A stretch of 39,024 bases of DNA from a virus (IMGVR_UViG_3300029858_000025), one strand, 5' to 3'. Shown: positions 2,887 through 13,706, numbered from the stretch's first letter. Notes: generated from the sequence alone by a model not told the origin. Made by a program: numbers and translations.

Positions 2887-2979
2887 TATGTGGGGAGCAT
2901 TTTTCAGCTGGGGAGTGCCGATGTTTGTTATAGGCGTAATGGCGGGCGTTGCATTCGCACCCCACAAAAGGAGATAGAC

Positions 2980-3372
2980 ATGGAAGCGTGCACAACCGGA
3001 CAAACCCTGTGCTGGCGTTGCCGAAGAGCGACCAACGCCCCAGGCATGGGCTGCAGCTGGTCTCGCCGCGCCGATCCCGAACCCGTTGAGGGCTGGGAGG
3101 CAAGGGAGACAACGCTGAAGGGCAGCGACTATTACCACGGCAAAAACTACACGACAATTATACAGTCCTACGTCATCCGCGCCTGCCCGCTGTTTTTGCC
3201 GGACGGGAAAAGCGAGCCGCCGCGTATATACAGGAAGTGGATCGTCGAAGTGGACGGCGAGTGGCTGACAATGCAGGAGACGAGGGAGCGGCTGGGCATC
3301 GACAGACACGAAATATACAAACTGATCGAGCGCGGCAAGCTCAACGCCAGACAAGTGGAGCAAATGAGCTAA
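2980..3372 (+). CDS. Zinc-finger plus C-terminal HTH protein (130 aa)
   Basis: ATG 2980 follows AAAGGAG. Contains CWRC...C.W and a C-terminal LTMQETRERLGIDRHEIYKLIERGKL. Confidence 0.55.
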   Translation: MEACTTGQTLCWRCRRATNAPGMGCSWSRRADPEPVEGWEARETTLKGSDYYHGKNYTTIIQSYVIRACPLFLPDGKSEPPRIYRKWIVEVDGEWLTMQETRERLGIDRHEIYKLIERGKLNARQVEQMS

Positions 3373-3400
3373 AAACATATCATAGGGAGGACATAAAAAA

Positions 3401-4030
3401 ATGAAATTAGGAGAACTACCATTCGGAAGCAACATCAAAATCCCCGAGCGCCGCGAGGATGGAACCTACGAGCTGGCTGACTACACCCTCGGTTGCCTCA
3501 ATAATTTTGACGTAGGCACCGCAGGGCTTGCCCGCGAGGAGGTACACAGCCTGTGCCGGTTCGGCGACAGCACGGAGTACGCCGGATCAGACCTGGACAA
3601 ACGCATGACGGAAATATACAACAGCTACCCCGACGAGCTTAAAGAACTGATTATCCCAAGCACGATCCCGCTGTATAACGGCAGCGGCGCTGAGGATATA
3701 ACACGGAAAGTATTTGCCCCCACGTTGACCATGGTAGGCTGCGGCGACAACCACGAAGCAGAAGAAGGCTTAACATGGCCTATATTCACGGGAAGAAATA
3801 GCCGCAAAAAGACCTTTAACGGCTCGGCAGCCAACTGGTGGCTTTCCTCGCAGAACTCCTCTGTCAGCGCGTGGTACGTCTACACGGACGGCTCCGCCTA
3901 CTACAACTTCCCGTCGCTCTCGTATGGTGTTGTCCCCGCTTTTGTAATCCCTCAATCGGTACAGATTGACGACATACCGGATAATGACGGCAGCTACAGA
4001 TTGACGGAGATGGAAAGCTATTGCTCGTAA
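3401..4030 (+). CDS. DUF6273-like protein, paralogue B (209 aa)
   Basis: Same length as 1714-2343. 111 nt are identical (3431-3541 = 1744-1854). The C-terminal WWLSS..GVVPAF segment is diverged. Confidence 0.75.
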   Translation: MKLGELPFGSNIKIPERREDGTYELADYTLGCLNNFDVGTAGLAREEVHSLCRFGDSTEYAGSDLDKRMTEIYNSYPDELKELIIPSTIPLYNGSGAEDITRKVFAPTLTMVGCGDNHEAEEGLTWPIFTGRNSRKKTFNGSAANWWLSSQNSSVSAWYVYTDGSAYYNFPSLSYGVVPAFVIPQSVQIDDIPDNDGSYRLTEMESYCS

Positions 4031-10225: not shown

Positions 10226-10566
10226 TAACGATCCACAACAACGAAGAGCCGCTGTACAAGTCGGCGAAGGAAATACACGAAAACGCCGTTACTCATGGCT
10301 GGTGGGACGAGCCTCGCAACCTGCTGGAGATTGTCGCCCTTTGCCATAGCGAACTGTCCGAGGCGGTAGAGGAATACCGTGCCGGCCGCGACATGATTTA
10401 CCCCGGCGTGGGCGGCAAGCCCGAGGGCATAGCCGTCGAAATGGCCGATTGCCTTATTAGGATACTGGACTGGTTCGGGCATGAGGAGCTGGACGTGGAC
10501 GAGATTGTGCGACAAAAGATGGCCTATAATCGTGGGCGGCCCTATAAGCACGGAAAGAAGTACTGA
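10222..10566 (+). CDS. MazG-like nucleotide pyrophosphohydrolase
   Basis: HSELSEAVEEYR and EMADCLIRILD metal-binding helices. ATGA overlap with the upstream gene. Confidence 0.75.
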   Translation: MITIHNNEEPLYKSAKEIHENAVTHGWWDEPRNLLEIVALCHSELSEAVEEYRAGRDMIYPGVGGKPEGIAVEMADCLIRILDWFGHEELDVDEIVRQKMAYNRGRPYKHGKKY

Positions 10567-10567
10567 A

Positions 10568-11044
10568 ATGAATGATAGAGAAAAGCGTTGGAGGGTTCGG
10601 GGGCAACTCCGCCGGTGGGGGAACACAGCAAACCTGTGCCGGAGGAAACAGGCCGAAATCGCGGAATATATCGGGCTGATCGATGCCGCTGTTGACACAC
10701 TGGGCGCACAGATCATTAGCGGAGTGCCGCGTGGGACGGATACGAGCGACCCCACAGCGTGGGCGGCACAAAAGGCGGAGGCACTGAGGGAAGCCTATCG
10801 CGGGCGGATAACCGAATTGCAAATTGATATATGCACTGCCCTGGATTTGGCGCGGCACATGGACGAGATCGTAACCGAGCTGCCCCCCGACCAACAGGAG
10901 GTTATCGACAAACGGTATAAGCGCCGCTGGGGGTGGGGCAGGATAGGCGCGAAATTATACATCAGCGATAGGCAAGCACAGCGCGTGGAGGCGGAGGCGG
11001 TCACGAGGCTTGCGGAATATATGGATTTTGAGCGGATGGAATAA
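10568..11044 (+). CDS. ArpU/RinA-like (sigma-70 region-4-like) late transcription regulator
   Basis: C-terminal LPPDQQEVIDKRYKRRWGWGRIGAKLYISDRQAQRVEAEAVTRL. It is the last gene of the early operon. Confidence 0.55.
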   Translation: MNDREKRWRVRGQLRRWGNTANLCRRKQAEIAEYIGLIDAAVDTLGAQIISGVPRGTDTSDPTAWAAQKAEALREAYRGRITELQIDICTALDLARHMDEIVTELPPDQQEVIDKRYKRRWGWGRIGAKLYISDRQAQRVEAEAVTRLAEYMDFERME

Positions 11045-11075
11045 AAAAAGGGGCTGCGTTGAGCGGCCCCTTTTT
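11043..11075. terminator. Bidirectional rho-independent terminator
   Basis: A7 run, 8-bp GC-rich stem (ggggctgc/gcggcccc, one G-U pair), T5 run. Lies between convergent units. Confidence 0.8.
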
Positions 11076-11104: not shown

Positions 11105-11290
11105 TCATATCGGCCGGAAGTTCCCGATCGTCTCCCAAATGACCCCCAGCCGGAAATCATATATCCCCACGCCGTCGCACTCTCGGCGGTAGATACGGGC
11201 GGCGGCGCGAGCCTGGGCGAGGGTGCTAAACTCCCGCCGCTCGTCGTGCCCCTCGTCCCTCGTCCATGTAATAACCTGATAACGCATCAT
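11105..11290 (-). CDS. Hypothetical protein (61 aa)
   Basis: ORF track. Its start overlaps the stop of the upstream gene (ATGA-type coupling). Confidence 0.5.
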   Translation of the reverse strand: MMRYQVITWTRDEGHDERREFSTLAQARAAARIYRRECDGVGIYDFRLGVIWETIGNFRPI

Positions 11291-11514
11291 GCTATGCCCT
11301 CCGTGTAAATGCTCGTCCCGTTACGTTTAAAGCACTCATTCCAATAATCCGCCAGCTCTTCAGCGGCTTTTTTTGTTGCACAGAGGTTAGCGGCCTGCAT
11401 TCCGGCGATCCTCTGCGAGATGTTCATAATGTTATCATTGCTGCTGACTGTCATAGTTCCTGCCCAATACTTACCGTTCTGCTGCGCAGAAAACGCGATA
11501 TAAAAGTTTTTCAT
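11287..11514 (-). CDS. Hypothetical protein (75 aa, MKNFYIAFSAQQNGKYWAG...)
   Basis: ATG 11514 follows AGGAGGTACAAT on the minus strand. Confidence 0.6.
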   Translation of the reverse strand: MKNFYIAFSAQQNGKYWAGTMTVSSNDNIMNISQRIAGMQAANLCATKKAAEELADYWNECFKRNGTSIYTEGIA

Positions 11515-11544
11515 ATTGTACCTCCTTAAAATCATACGGCGGCT

Positions 11545-12309
11545 TTACGCCGCCACAACCGTTATATTGCGGTAAAAATTTGTGTCGAAATAGTCAACCA
11601 TGCTATTGCTGCCGTCGTGGTGGTATGCGTCCAGCACTGCGTTAATCCGGTGCAGCTTTGCGCGGAACGCCTCAGTATAGATTTTATTGTCATCAATCCT
11701 GTAATGGTTAATGTCAGTTCTACCGGAAACGGCGGAATCATACTCGCGGGCGGCGTGGCTCCTGATTATGCGATGCTGCTCCTCATTACTGTATTTATCG
11801 CTGAATAGGGCGGTGTGGTGTATGCTCTCTCCGTCCTCGGTGACGAACCAGGCGGCGCGAAGGCCATATTTTCCAGCGTCGTAATCATTGATGTATTTCT
11901 CGCGGCTGATGAAGTCCTCGGCGGCGGCCTTAACCTTAACCGTGATTTCCTGCCCGCCGGTGAATGTTTTGCAGCTGACGGAAACGCCCTTAACGCCCTG
12001 CCGCTTCAGCTCCTCGCGAATCGCCTTTGACAGTTCCGCGCCGTGCAGGTATTTACCGGACTTGTTGCCGTCCCAGCGGGTAGCCCCTAAATAGCCCTCG
12101 GAGATCGTGCCGCCCAGCTCGTTATCATGCTCACCGATAGCCGCTAATATGTCATCCTGAGCGGCGAACCCGTACCAGCAGCCCTTCTTTGGGTTCCAGC
12201 GCATTTTCAGACCGCGAAGAGCGGTTAAAACCTCGGCGGCGGGTTTGCTTTCAAAATATATTTCATTGCTGTTATATTGTGCGTTCTTCTCGATTCTGTA
12301 GCTTGCCAT
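11545..12309 (-). CDS. Polyvalent-protein-associated / DUF3560-like domain protein (254 aa)
   Basis: N-terminal IYFESKPAAEVLTALRGLKMRWNPKKGCWYG pattern, typical of plasmid and phage accessory proteins. RBS GGAGG. Confidence 0.6.
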   Translation of the reverse strand: MASYRIEKNAQYNSNEIYFESKPAAEVLTALRGLKMRWNPKKGCWYGFAAQDDILAAIGEHDNELGGTISEGYLGATRWDGNKSGKYLHGAELSKAIREELKRQGVKGVSVSCKTFTGGQEITVKVKAAAEDFISREKYINDYDAGKYGLRAAWFVTEDGESIHHTALFSDKYSNEEQHRIIRSHAAREYDSAVSGRTDINHYRIDDNKIYTEAFRAKLHRINAVLDAYHHDGSNSMVDYFDTNFYRNITVVAA

Positions 12310-12354
12310 TTTGTAACCTCCATTGTTCGGGGTGGTTCCCCTTTCGATGTCTCT

Positions 12355-12383
12355 ATTATATACCGGTGCCAGTATATAGTCAA
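12355..12383 (-). promoter_or_regulatory. Consensus promoter TTGACT-17-TATAAT (minus strand) with TATATAC-N8-GTATATA palindrome in the spacer/-10
   Basis: -10 at 12355-12360, -35 at 12378-12383. Shares GGTATATAATAnAGACA with the promoter at 13678-13706. Confidence 0.65.
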
Positions 12384-12427
12384 CTAAAATATTGAGGGAA
12401 AAGCCTTAAAGAATTAGGTATATATAC

Positions 12428-12456
12428 TTGCACCGTGATATGAAAAATGATAGAAT
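12428..12456 (+). promoter_or_regulatory. Promoter TTGCAC-17-TAGAAT with TGn extension, for the RHH gene
   Basis: -35 at 12428-12433, -10 at 12451-12456. GGAGGTGA RBS and ATG 12475 lie downstream. Confidence 0.55.
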
Positions 12457-12474
12457 CTAATCGGAGGTGAGAAC

Positions 12475-12654
12475 ATGGGAACGGCTGCAACACGCGCAAA
12501 ACGGCGGTACGATGAAAAAACGTACAGCCGGATAATAATCAGGGTGAAAAAAGGCGAAGAAGAAAAAATAAAACAACGGGCGGAAAAATTAGGAAAAAGC
12601 GTTAACGCCTATATAACCGACCTGATCTATGAGGACATGGAAAAAGAGGGCTGA
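12475..12654 (+). CDS. Ribbon-helix-helix (CopG/Arc-like) DNA-binding protein, 59 aa
   Basis: Hand-translated: MGTAATRAKRRYDEKTYSRIIIRVKKGEEEKIKQRAEKLGKSVNAYITDLIYEDMEKEG. Shows beta-strand then helix-helix (KSVNAYI..LI). Below the ORF-track cutoff. Confidence 0.7.
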   Translation: MGTAATRAKRRYDEKTYSRIIIRVKKGEEEKIKQRAEKLGKSVNAYITDLIYEDMEKEG

Positions 12655-12665
12655 TATAGCCCTCT
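12641..12665 (-). terminator. Hairpin agagggc/gccctct followed by T5 on the minus strand
   Basis: Perfect 7-bp stem with a 7-nt loop. Sits at the stops of the convergent genes 12475-12654(+) and 12665-13138(-). Confidence 0.55.
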
Positions 12666-13138
12666 TATATCATTATTCCAAACTTTGCCGCGAGCAGTTC
12701 CCGCCGCGCTTGCGGTATCGGCTTGACCCCGGCACACCACGAATGCACGGCGGCCTTGCTCACCTCGCAGGCCTCGGCGGCCTGCTCCAGCGTCAGGCCA
12801 CGGGCCTTAAGCTGATCCCGCAAATACTCGCCGTCGCCGAGCACGGGAGCACACCGGCCCTGCATATAGGCAAGCTCCCATATGCCTTGCTGGTTGAGCG
12901 GCAGCGCGTGCTCGTCCTCGGTTATATCCTCTGCGCCTTGCAGCGCGTCCCGTATGGCTCTATCGACCTCCGGGGTAAGCTTGCGGTTAATAATCATATA
13001 CCGCAAGCCCTCACCCAGCCCACGGATGGGCCACATATTAGCTGTTTGCACCCGGCAGTGCGCCCCGACTATTTCGGGGAGCTGCGCCGCCATTATACCA
13101 TACGCCCGGCCCAGGGCCTTAACCGTGTTGTCTGTCAT
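12665..13138 (-). CDS. Protein with C-terminal XRE-like HTH (157 aa), an Aca-like candidate regulator
   Basis: C-terminal GLTLEQAAEACEVSKAAVHSWCAGVKPIP. It is the third gene of the leftward unit. Confidence 0.65.
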   Translation of the reverse strand: MTDNTVKALGRAYGIMAAQLPEIVGAHCRVQTANMWPIRGLGEGLRYMIINRKLTPEVDRAIRDALQGAEDITEDEHALPLNQQGIWELAYMQGRCAPVLGDGEYLRDQLKARGLTLEQAAEACEVSKAAVHSWCAGVKPIPQARRELLAAKFGIMI

Positions 13139-13163
13139 GTGCTCACCTCCGTTAATCCTGCGA

Positions 13164-13391
13164 TTATATTAGTCTTGGCCGCATCAAAGCGGCTAATTTT
13201 TGCGCGGGTTTGTAACCTCTGTCCTTTACCGCCTGATAGAGCGCCCGGATTTCTTCGGGTCTGCCGGTCGTAAACGTAACCGCCCCCCGTGGGGTGATGT
13301 CCACAAACCGCACAGCGGGGCAAAAACCGAGGTCATAACAGACCTCATCATATGTCATCTCAATTTTTTCACCGTTTTTCACTACCTGCAT
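13164..13391 (-). CDS. Hypothetical protein (75 aa)
   Basis: RBS AAGGAGGATAAG before the ATG at 13391. Confidence 0.6.
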   Translation of the reverse strand: MQVVKNGEKIEMTYDEVCYDLGFCPAVRFVDITPRGAVTFTTGRPEEIRALYQAVKDRGYKPAQKLAALMRPRLI

Positions 13392-13467
13392 TTTCTTATC
13401 CTCCTTTTTTGCCGCCGGGCTTGTGACCGGCCTGCCGCATTACCGCCCTCGCGGGCGTCACTCTGCA

Positions 13468-13647
13468 TTACTTGTATATCTTGACCGTCTCCCAACCGTC
13501 TATCGCGGCAGTAGTATTTAGCTCCTTTACGGGCAAGCGCTTGATTACGGCTATGCCCTGATTGATGATGCATTCATATTCATAACGGTAGGTTTTGGTG
13601 TCTACTGTCAATTCCTTCTTTACACGGTTCTCAAATGCTTTAGTCAT
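13468..13647 (-). CDS. Hypothetical protein (59 aa, MTKAFENRVKKELTVDTKTYRYEYECIINQG...)
   Basis: Hand-translated. GAGAGGAGATAAAAGCA precedes the ATG at 13647. Below the ORF-track cutoff. Confidence 0.55.
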   Translation of the reverse strand: MTKAFENRVKKELTVDTKTYRYEYECIINQGIAVIKRLPVKELNTTAAIDGWETVKIYK

Positions 13648-13677
13648 TGCTTTTATCTCCTCTCTTGTTATGTCTAT

Positions 13678-13706
13678 ATTATATACCTGTCAGATTAAAA
13701 AGTCAA
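13678..13706 (-). promoter_or_regulatory. Consensus promoter TTGACT-17-TATAAT (minus strand) driving the leftward island
   Basis: -10 at 13678-13683, -35 at 13701-13706, about 30 nt upstream of the first gene. Confidence 0.7.

Follow-up and report, generated by a model that had tools for sequence, protein, structure and literature searches.

A counter-oriented accessory island with a candidate anti-CRISPR-type operon and a predicted twister ribozyme in a phage of gut Clostridia

What is the function of a block of small genes that lies between two rightward operons of a phage and is read almost entirely against them? This question is raised by positions 11105-13706 of the viral DNA stretch IMGVR_UViG_3300029858_000025 (39,024 nt, analysed at full length and called the window below). 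A sequence-only reading had interpreted the block as an anti-defence island laid out like an operon of anti-CRISPR (acr) genes and anti-CRISPR-associated (aca) regulators, and it was followed up here by purely computational analysis. The rightward phage genes on both flanks and the gene content of the left part of the window identify the DNA as that of a tailed phage or prophage, and the carrier is a phage of gut Clostridia. We consider it fairly probable, as one judgement on the whole explanation and both of its parts, that the block is a modular accessory island made up of two self-contained cassettes, Unit 1 and Unit 2, at a fixed hot spot between a sigma-like late regulator and the packaging genes. 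The acr/aca interpretation is supported by association for Unit 1, where an AcrIC5 homologue in sibling phages, shuffled cargo and a Cas11c-like domain speak for it, and is unproven for Unit 2; for the window's own cargo genes and for Unit 2, an anti-CRISPR role is a reasonable guess. Observed directly are the gene anatomy, the homologies, the shuffling of modules and the joint variation of operators and β-strand, whereas ribozyme cleavage, repression, inhibition of CRISPR and the timing of expression are predicted activities.

Two cassettes at a constant site

Related loci were retrieved from IMG/VR with the 254-aa protein (65 loci) and the 157-aa protein (69 loci) of the block as queries, together with further metagenomic contigs. 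Unit 1, which extends from promoter P1 to the terminal gene g157, and Unit 2, which consists of a gene for a ribbon-helix-helix (RHH) protein, promoter P2 and the genes from g254 onward, were found either jointly or singly: Unit 2 stood alone in 11 close relatives and Unit 1 in a family of at least 24 contigs. Across three or more phage backbones, the whole island or single cassettes occupied a constant, counter-oriented position, with a sigma-like gene on one side and the packaging (terminase) genes on the other. Moreover, a 43%-identical relative of g254 was present in a comparable counter-oriented five-gene island of a more distant phage. At the DNA level, the island resembled none of 50,697 deposited phage genomes.

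Both cassettes begin at a sigma-70-type promoter. P1 (13678-13706) and P2 (12355-12383), both on the minus strand, have the form TTGACT-17-TATAAT and each agree with the consensus in 11 of 12 positions. This pattern occurs only at these two places in 39 kb (0.00 expected; none in 100 shuffles), and both promoters are conserved across dozens of related phage contigs. The extended string GGTATATAATAnAGACA that had been reported as common to P1 and P2 is indeed found in both. Six leftward open reading frames with ribosome-binding sites, coding for proteins of 59, 75, 157, 254, 75 and 61 aa, were likewise recovered as described. The block is not leftward throughout, since the 59-aa RHH gene is on the plus strand (12475-12654) and is transcribed divergently from P2. 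The two bidirectional terminators could also be corroborated, as both hairpins fold well on both strands (z-scores -3.1 to -4.1). The hairpin that ends Unit 1 (12639-12666; -15.9 and -16.1 kcal/mol; z -4.1 and -3.7) overlaps the 3' end of the RHH gene, and that at 11045-11075 (-18.2 and -23.1 kcal/mol) is shared with the convergent sigma-like gene.

Exchangeable cargo and a twister ribozyme in Unit 1

Unit 1 was surveyed in 90 loci, representing 46 distinct sequences, 11 gene architectures and eight cargo families. In all of them g157 was the last gene, with 89-100% identity across the versions. The P1 block, a segment of ~110 bp that runs from an AT-rich upstream stretch at about -45 through the ribosome-binding site, was nearly invariant and common to three phage backbones. 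Unit 1 therefore combines a conserved DNA-binding gene with variable small upstream genes on mobile elements, the pattern by which acr-aca loci are recognised through guilt by association.

In one of the architectures, a P1 and a ribosome-binding site identical to those of the window are followed by a gene for an acidic protein of 66 aa. This sibling protein is an AcrIC5 homologue (Pfam PF22147, 46.6 bits with a cut-off of 27; PDB entry 7yhr, E = 1.2e-5). The gene order in this architecture is the AcrIC5 homologue, a 67-aa gene, a copy of g75a that is 95% identical to that of the window, and g157. Inhibition of type I-C CRISPR-Cas by AcrIC5 is validated, and Firmicutes are known to possess orthologues; in clostridial phages, new anti-CRISPR proteins (Acr) have already been discovered along guilt-by-association chains that began with AcrIC5. 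In the window, the slot of the AcrIC5-family gene is filled by g59 (13468-13647, minus strand; 59 aa, isoelectric point 9.1), the first cargo gene of Unit 1, which makes g59 a candidate anti-CRISPR gene by position only. A single cargo gene preceded g157 in 23 loci, namely a member of family c1 in 18 and g59 in five. We propose that host RNA polymerase would transcribe Unit 1 at once from the host-type consensus P1, which would drive the exchangeable small cargo genes, and that the cassette may be aimed at type I-C CRISPR-Cas. The shuffled cargo provides candidates for seven or more new inhibitor families (c0, c1, c2, c4, c6, g59 and g75a).

The small proteins had been said to carry no recognisable motif, and this was borne out: g59, g75a (13164-13391, minus strand; 75 aa, the second cargo gene of Unit 1), g75b and g61 had no match in Pfam, PHROGs, NCBIfam, PADLOC or PDB. 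The same searches gave nothing usable for the sibling cargo families c0, c1, c2, c4, f66, f116 and others. PADLOC applied to the window proteins returned only generic helix-turn-helix (HTH) matches (capH, mad1) and noise. A resemblance of g75a to designer pentatricopeptide-repeat proteins was discarded, because its very low E-values were one weak 22-residue match summed over repeats, with no significant stretch. A solitary CRISPR-repeat motif of the Racr-like kind, ATTGAAAC, was absent.

The acr-aca operons described so far, such as acrIC5-aca1 of Pseudomonas (León et al., 2021, PMC7913775), resemble Unit 1 in their strong host-type promoter, carriage by phages, small shuffled genes and conserved 3' HTH gene, and a member of the AcrIC5 family occupies the cargo slot in the siblings of the window. 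Unit 1 differs from them in that its HTH protein is 157 aa long with an additional Cas11c-like domain, that a ribozyme lies inside the operon and that no promoter inverted repeat was found at P1.

This ribozyme, which the sequence-only reading had not described, is a type-P5 twister (RF02684) at 13415-13467 on the minus strand. It was detected in the whole window with the Rfam covariance model over its full length (positions 1-58 of 58; 60.1 bits with a gathering score of 37.6; E = 3e-10). Type-P5 twisters are rare and account for ~1% of annotated twisters. The motif constitutes the 53-nt spacer between g59 and g75a: it begins 1 nt past the stop codon of g59 and ends ~10 nt before the ribosome-binding site of g75a. 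Its conserved core is intact, and copies in sibling phages score 64-65 bits. The twister was present in 63 fetched loci, and its copies differed only in the loop of P5, at a single unpaired position and in the flanks. Its position between two genes follows a fixed scheme. The cargo gene before it is g59, the AcrIC5 homologue or a 167-aa gene, with the twister beginning 1 nt past its stop codon; the gene after it, in some cases g157 itself, has its ribosome-binding site 5-10 nt downstream of the twister end.

In two contigs (L176 and L177, 2442-3712), a 97%-identical AcrIC5 gene and the same twister were found in an unrelated operon with a different promoter and no g157. This indicates that cargo plus ribozyme travels as a unit. 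In these contigs the pair is followed by a gene for a zinc-ribbon protein and then by one for a 165-aa protein with an RHH-like C-terminus (weak DUF6364 match). The AcrIC5-twister cassette thus has a terminal DNA-binding gene of a second type.

Solved twisters cut at the U-A step just 3' of their stem P1, and cleavage of the window copy is thus expected at the U|AA step near 13442/13441. Such a cut would divide the Unit 1 transcript and let both halves be expressed at different levels. The upstream cargo mRNA would terminate in a GC hairpin bearing a 2',3'-cyclic phosphate, and the downstream regulator message would begin with a 5'-OH. In Firmicutes, the glmS message becomes accessible to RNase J1 through such a 5'-OH end. 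On this precedent, high cargo and low regulator expression is a plausible effect of the twister. Reviews describe the role of bacterial self-cleaving ribozymes, and their clustering with phage genes, as unexplained (PMC6765202), and no paper in the literature searched tied such ribozymes to operons of the anti-CRISPR or anti-defence kind. The twister has phage genes as neighbours, as do the bacterial twister, hammerhead and pistol ribozymes reported before; in contrast to other phage-associated ribozymes, the context can be named, between acr-type cargo and the regulator of the operon. The fixed site of the twister, after an acr-type gene and before the next ribosome-binding site, makes the question of its role directly testable.

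A full-length Pistol ribozyme (RF02679) is also present in the window, at 1602-1690 on the plus strand (52.2 bits; gathering score 34.5), which gives the phage two ribozyme classes. It is closely followed by a DUF6273 gene (1714-2343). This gene belongs to a region in which a gene pair is duplicated (996-2671 and 2890-4030, plus strand), each pair coding for an HTH_17 protein and then a 209-aa DUF6273 protein. Only in the first copy is there a pistol ribozyme in front and an HNH gene behind.

The terminal gene g157

Pfam analysis of g157 alone (12665-13138, minus strand; 157 aa) recognised only the C-terminal XRE-type HTH domain (HTH_31/HTH_3; residues 103-154, nt 12677-12832), for which Foldseek returned DdrO, SinR and HigA. 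An exhaustive search assembled a small family of relatives of ~157 aa with 23-37% identity. The AlphaFold2 model built with these relatives (predicted local distance difference test, pLDDT, 93.1) comprises five N-terminal helices and the HTH domain.

The helical domain (residues 7-98, nt 12845-13120, minus strand) was related to Cas11c by profile search, hhalign and Foldseek. Foldseek aligned the model with 9jhb_B, a 114-residue chain named "CRISPR-associated protein, CT1133 family", which is the label found on Cas11c chains (target-normalised TM-score 0.57; 107-113 columns with type I-C Cascade chains), and also with the Cas8c chains 8g9t_K and 8g9s_K. A profile of residues 1-100 searched against PDB gave ten top matches that were all Cas11c or the C-terminus of Cas8c. 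They came from three type I-C systems, with E-values from 6.3e-5 to 0.027 and an alignment of residues 7-97 with 11-114, and the next match had an E-value of 0.89. The Pfam family Cas_Csd1 was matched by five of 20 g157-family members, below the family threshold. Comparison of the domain with Cas11c by hhalign gave 95.6% probability at 23% identity. Both share a Y-x-LG-x-x-Y/F motif near the start, a conserved proline and an L-x-QQG-x-W/F-x-x-GYY motif at the end. The N-terminal ~100 residues of g157 are thus probably homologous to Cas11c, which forms the small subunit in Cascade of type I-C. Because the domain is fused to an HTH domain and encoded in a phage accessory operon, and not in a cas8c gene of a CRISPR-Cas locus, it would be a viral homologue rather than a cas gene, and it ties Unit 1 to type I-C CRISPR-Cas.

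A search for this Cas11c-like family in a set of 5.8 billion proteins returned only the same HTH-fusion family, and no report of a Cas11c-like Acr or Aca was found in the literature. g157 could be assigned to no Aca family with a solved structure, as its PDB sequence matches were to generic XRE HTH domains only; Aca3 (9vt3) was matched at E = 4.8e-4 in the HTH domain only. We regard g157 as a candidate Aca and/or mimic of a Cascade subunit, which would shut the operon through its HTH domain and/or bind or enter type I-C Cascade as a faulty small subunit. Two kinds of precedent make this functional reading plausible. Several Acrs carry HTH domains and autoregulate. The bifunctional Acr/autorepressors AcrIIA1 and AcrIIC9 resemble g157 in that a single polypeptide from an acr locus unites an HTH DNA-binding module and a second domain. 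AcrIIA1 differs in that its HTH domain is N-terminal and its effector domain is no Cas homologue, and the sequences are unrelated to g157. The second precedent is AcrIB4 of a Listeria phage, which is homologous to the final 90 residues of Cas8b and inhibits type I-B Cascade (Katz et al., bioRxiv 10.1101/2023.06.24.545427). AcrIB4 and g157 are both phage-encoded homologues of the C-terminal (Cas11-equivalent) part of Cas8 outside a CRISPR locus. They differ in that AcrIB4 is 38% identical to Cas8b and belongs to type I-B, whereas the similarity of g157 is remote, concerns type I-C and comes with an HTH fusion. If the functional reading is true, the fusion of a Cas11c-like and an HTH domain extends the concept of viral Cas homologues as anti-CRISPRs from type I-B to type I-C and links it to autoregulation.

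The strongest alternative is that g157 is only a transcription factor, whose Cas11-like bundle has been exapted for oligomerisation or ligand sensing, and that any anti-CRISPR activity resides in the small cargo genes. We judge this possible, though somewhat doubtful. It would agree with the remote homology (23% identity in the hhalign alignment), the frequent reuse of small helical bundles, the standard XRE fold of the HTH domain and the fact that most Aca proteins are pure regulators. Against it, the domain fused to the HTH resembles the small subunit of type I-C in particular, the same type that is inhibited by the Acr in the operon of the siblings; inhibition by a homologue of the Cas8 C-terminus/Cas11 region is demonstrated by AcrIB4; and the loci with a single cargo gene before g157 speak in the same direction.

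Taking the ribozyme and g157 together, a more specific proposal can be made, which we advance as a speculation that is unlikely to be correct in all of its parts. The twister would split the inhibitor mRNA from the regulator mRNA and produce a high ratio of inhibitor to repressor, and the regulator would itself be a mimic of the Cascade small subunit, with the Cas11c-HTH fusion either poisoning type I-C Cascade or sensing Cascade binding to tune repression. If true, this would be the first concrete biological role for bacterial twister ribozymes, and probably also for the pistol ribozymes of the same phages.

Unit 2, its repressor and the alternatives for the island

The 59-aa RHH protein (gene at 12475-12654) scores close to the Pfam thresholds of HicB (21.0 with a threshold of 21), NikA-like (26.7 with 27) and Arc (20.1 with 20.4) and matches phrog_13890 with an E-value of 8e-19. 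Its promoter was inferred from the sequence at 12428-12456 on the plus strand (TTGCAC-17-TAGAAT with an extended -10, TGa). It is too weak for the promoter scan, and its layout is conserved in relatives. Two putative operators were identified at the divergent promoters. O1 (12357-12378, minus strand), the quasi-palindrome TATATACTGGCACCGGTATATA, fills the spacer of P2 and overlaps its -35 and -10 elements, and O2 (12421-12441, plus strand), TATATACTTGCACCGTGATAT, covers the -35 element of the RHH promoter. The 20-nt pattern shared by both occurs exactly twice in the window (0.01 expected). The two operators are arranged head-to-head, and both have the same orientation with respect to the promoter that they overlap.

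Among relatives, the RHH proteins fall into four classes whose differences lie almost entirely in the N-terminal β-strand, with which the RHH fold reads DNA. The strand reads SRIIIRV in class A (this window), ERLEITV in class B, ERIVVFT in class C and ERLFIAV in class D, and the corresponding O1 centres are GGCACCG, CCCGTGAG, CTATAGAG and TGCGCACG. Each RHH class has its own centres in both O1 and O2. O2 shares the O1 centre in part, with seven to nine of 11 positions in classes B-D and 10 of 13 in class A, class B being the weakest. A change of the recognition strand with a parallel change at two sites is what co-evolving specificity predicts. The RHH protein is accordingly a putative repressor of P2 and of its own promoter: a dimer would bind the two copies of the 20-bp operator and gate g254, g75b and g61. 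The four β-strand variants with their matched operators form a compact natural data set on recognition specificity.

Joint control of both promoters by the trailing HTH protein and the RHH protein, as had been suggested earlier, did not find support. The evidence points to two autonomous cassettes, with the RHH protein probably acting at P2 and at its own promoter. The operator pattern is absent from P1 at up to three mismatches. P1 shares only a GTATATA half-site in its -10 element, and this heptamer is not enriched in the window (seven occurrences, 3.6 expected).

Aca14, an RHH-type Aca of September 2026 and predicted repressor of two anti-defence operons (NAR 2026, PMC13551039), is similar, as compared by description, in its AT-rich inverted repeats over core promoter elements, including those of a neighbouring operon. 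It differs from the window, where the RHH gene is divergent from its target operon instead of being its last gene and where four specificity classes exist. In further loci with distant g254 homologues (L042-L051 and L061), consensus promoters lie ~430-760 bp upstream of the g254 homologue and contain spacer palindromes such as TTGACTATTTGCGCAAATAGTGATATAAT. Strong promoters gated by a repressor may be common to islands with g254 homologues in general.

The first gene of Unit 2, g254 (11545-12309, minus strand; 254 aa), had been assigned to DUF3560 and the polyvalent-protein-associated domains. This assignment had to be abandoned. On its own, g254 has no Pfam match at E ≤ 1; none of 46 family members matches DUF3560, and LPD29 was found in one member at E = 0.17. 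The only link is that Foldseek aligned 55 residues (E = 0.1) with a phage protein that carries a DUF3560 annotation. With the label, the conclusion drawn from it that Unit 2 carries anti-restriction cargo loses its basis. The g254 family comprises at least 215 proteins from Clostridia phages and prophages with strongly conserved motifs, and the model is confident (pLDDT 89.9). The protein is composed of a small HARP/DUF5710-like N-terminal domain, a variable middle part and a C-terminal motif that does not vary, SNSMVDYFDTNFY. The first ~50 residues are similar to the C-termini of PHROG primases, a HARP/SWI-SNF-like phage protein and the one DUF3560-annotated protein, and five of 46 family members show weak similarity to DUF5710. 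Among close relatives, the middle third (residues ~136-200) is far more variable than the ends, and overall identity falls to 64% while neighbouring genes keep 85-98%. In two phages (L040, 5407-6528, and L041 with the same layout), the small N-terminal domain is swapped for DUF6273, giving a fusion of 373-375 aa with residues 75-254 of g254; similar fusions were found in the protein search (P0045, P0048, P0057 and P0062).

The other cargo of Unit 2 consists of g75b (11287-11514, minus strand; 75 aa, ribosome-binding site AAGGAGG) and g61 (11105-11290, minus strand; 61 aa). In relatives, g75b is interchangeable with the f116/c6 family or absent, and g61 is present in most copies of Unit 2. The f116/c6 family follows g254 in some phages and stands inside Unit 1 in others, and g75b and c6 have a common 24-nt leader. 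In two phages with a g254 relative 42% identical to that of the window, a type-P5 twister (41-42 bits) ends ~40 nt before the start codon of this relative (L043, 5906-5963; L049, 5916-5973). The shared f116/c6 family, the common leader and the ribozyme near distant g254 relatives suggest a common cargo pool for both units; that g254, g75b and g61 are counter-defence or establishment cargo is a guess. Further down the island of these two phages lies a pistol ribozyme of 65-67 bits (L043, 8391-8457; L049, 7917-7983), and a gut-2 RNA occurs elsewhere in their loci.

Alternatively, Unit 2 could be a module of DNA metabolism or establishment, in which g254 binds DNA structures through its HARP/DUF5710-like domain and the RHH protein merely times expression. 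The resemblance of the N-terminal 45-55 residues to the primase C-terminal domains and the HARP/SWI-SNF-like protein, the weak DUF5710 similarity, the wide distribution of g254 in Clostridia phages (215 homologues) and its position next to RusA and SSB genes in one lineage would fit such a function. We nevertheless find it rather unlikely. Sibling phages with the same replication genes lack g254, which is hence not essential; it always stands at counter-oriented or junction positions; it shares the exchangeable f116/c6 cargo with the acr-type Unit 1; a twister precedes it in other phages, as is the case for downstream genes of Unit 1; and in some phages its N-terminal domain is replaced by DUF6273.

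A further alternative is that the entire block is a generic prophage "moron" or lysogenic-conversion island that benefits the host through superinfection exclusion or anti-phage defence and has no part in counter-defence. The counter-orientation, sigma-70 consensus promoters and bidirectional terminators at both ends are in line with this, as are the dispensability of the island, its mobility between backbones and cargo proteins without known function. An integrase-sized open reading frame lies at the right end of the window, and the sibling loci L068 and L070 are on contigs of 124 and 274 kb, much larger than a phage genome, as would fit integrated prophages. Since Acr genes are themselves expressed from prophages, this anatomy cannot separate the two readings. 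The absence of PADLOC defence matches, the AcrIC5 cargo family and the Cascade-subunit-like domain of the terminal gene point to counter-defence and make a host-benefit island quite improbable. Finally, a type II toxin-antitoxin system with an RHH antitoxin was dismissed, as the RHH gene is divergent from g254 and its 59 aa constitute a bare RHH domain.

Several observations weigh against the explanation preferred here, that of a two-cassette accessory island with an anti-CRISPR-type Unit 1. No protein of the window matches a validated anti-defence protein, and the anti-CRISPR link consists of one cargo family seen in siblings and a remote Cas11c homology. g59 and g75a are basic, unlike the acidic AcrIC5. 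The Cas11c homology has an E-value of ~1e-4, the window's g157 alone matches nothing, and a Cas11-derived bundle might be reused merely as a dimerisation domain. The P1 block has no conserved inverted-repeat operator for g157, which leaves its autoregulation unsupported. The near-invariant P1 and twister sequences give no covariation evidence. The co-variation of RHH protein and operators may partly reflect physical linkage, as gene and sites lie within 120 bp. For g254, there was no match to any solved structure, to PDB sequences with the family profile or to Pfam. g157 has no relative in 185,579 GTDB representative genomes, and the relatives of g254 lead no further than Clostridia metagenome-assembled genomes, among them Oscillospiraceae and Acutalibacteraceae.

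Two candidate operators in the P1 region were considered. The sole inverted repeat, which flanks P1 (TTTATCT...AGATAAA), was rejected because operons with the other ribosome-binding-site leader have lost it, and a 9-bp palindrome in the P1 spacer (yCTGnCAGr) is too short to call.

The surroundings of the block conform to its description as lying between rightward operons. Upstream lies a rightward gene for a sigma/RinA-like regulator (10481-11044), and downstream, from 13867, follow rightward zinc-ribbon, ERF-like, probable small terminase and large terminase genes. The left part of the window encodes HNH, methylase, Phg_2220_C, VRR-NUC and DUF6273 genes. Two direct repeats of TGTCGTGA, 10 bp apart, lie upstream of P1 (13768-13785, plus strand); they are specific to this backbone and located outside the conserved island.

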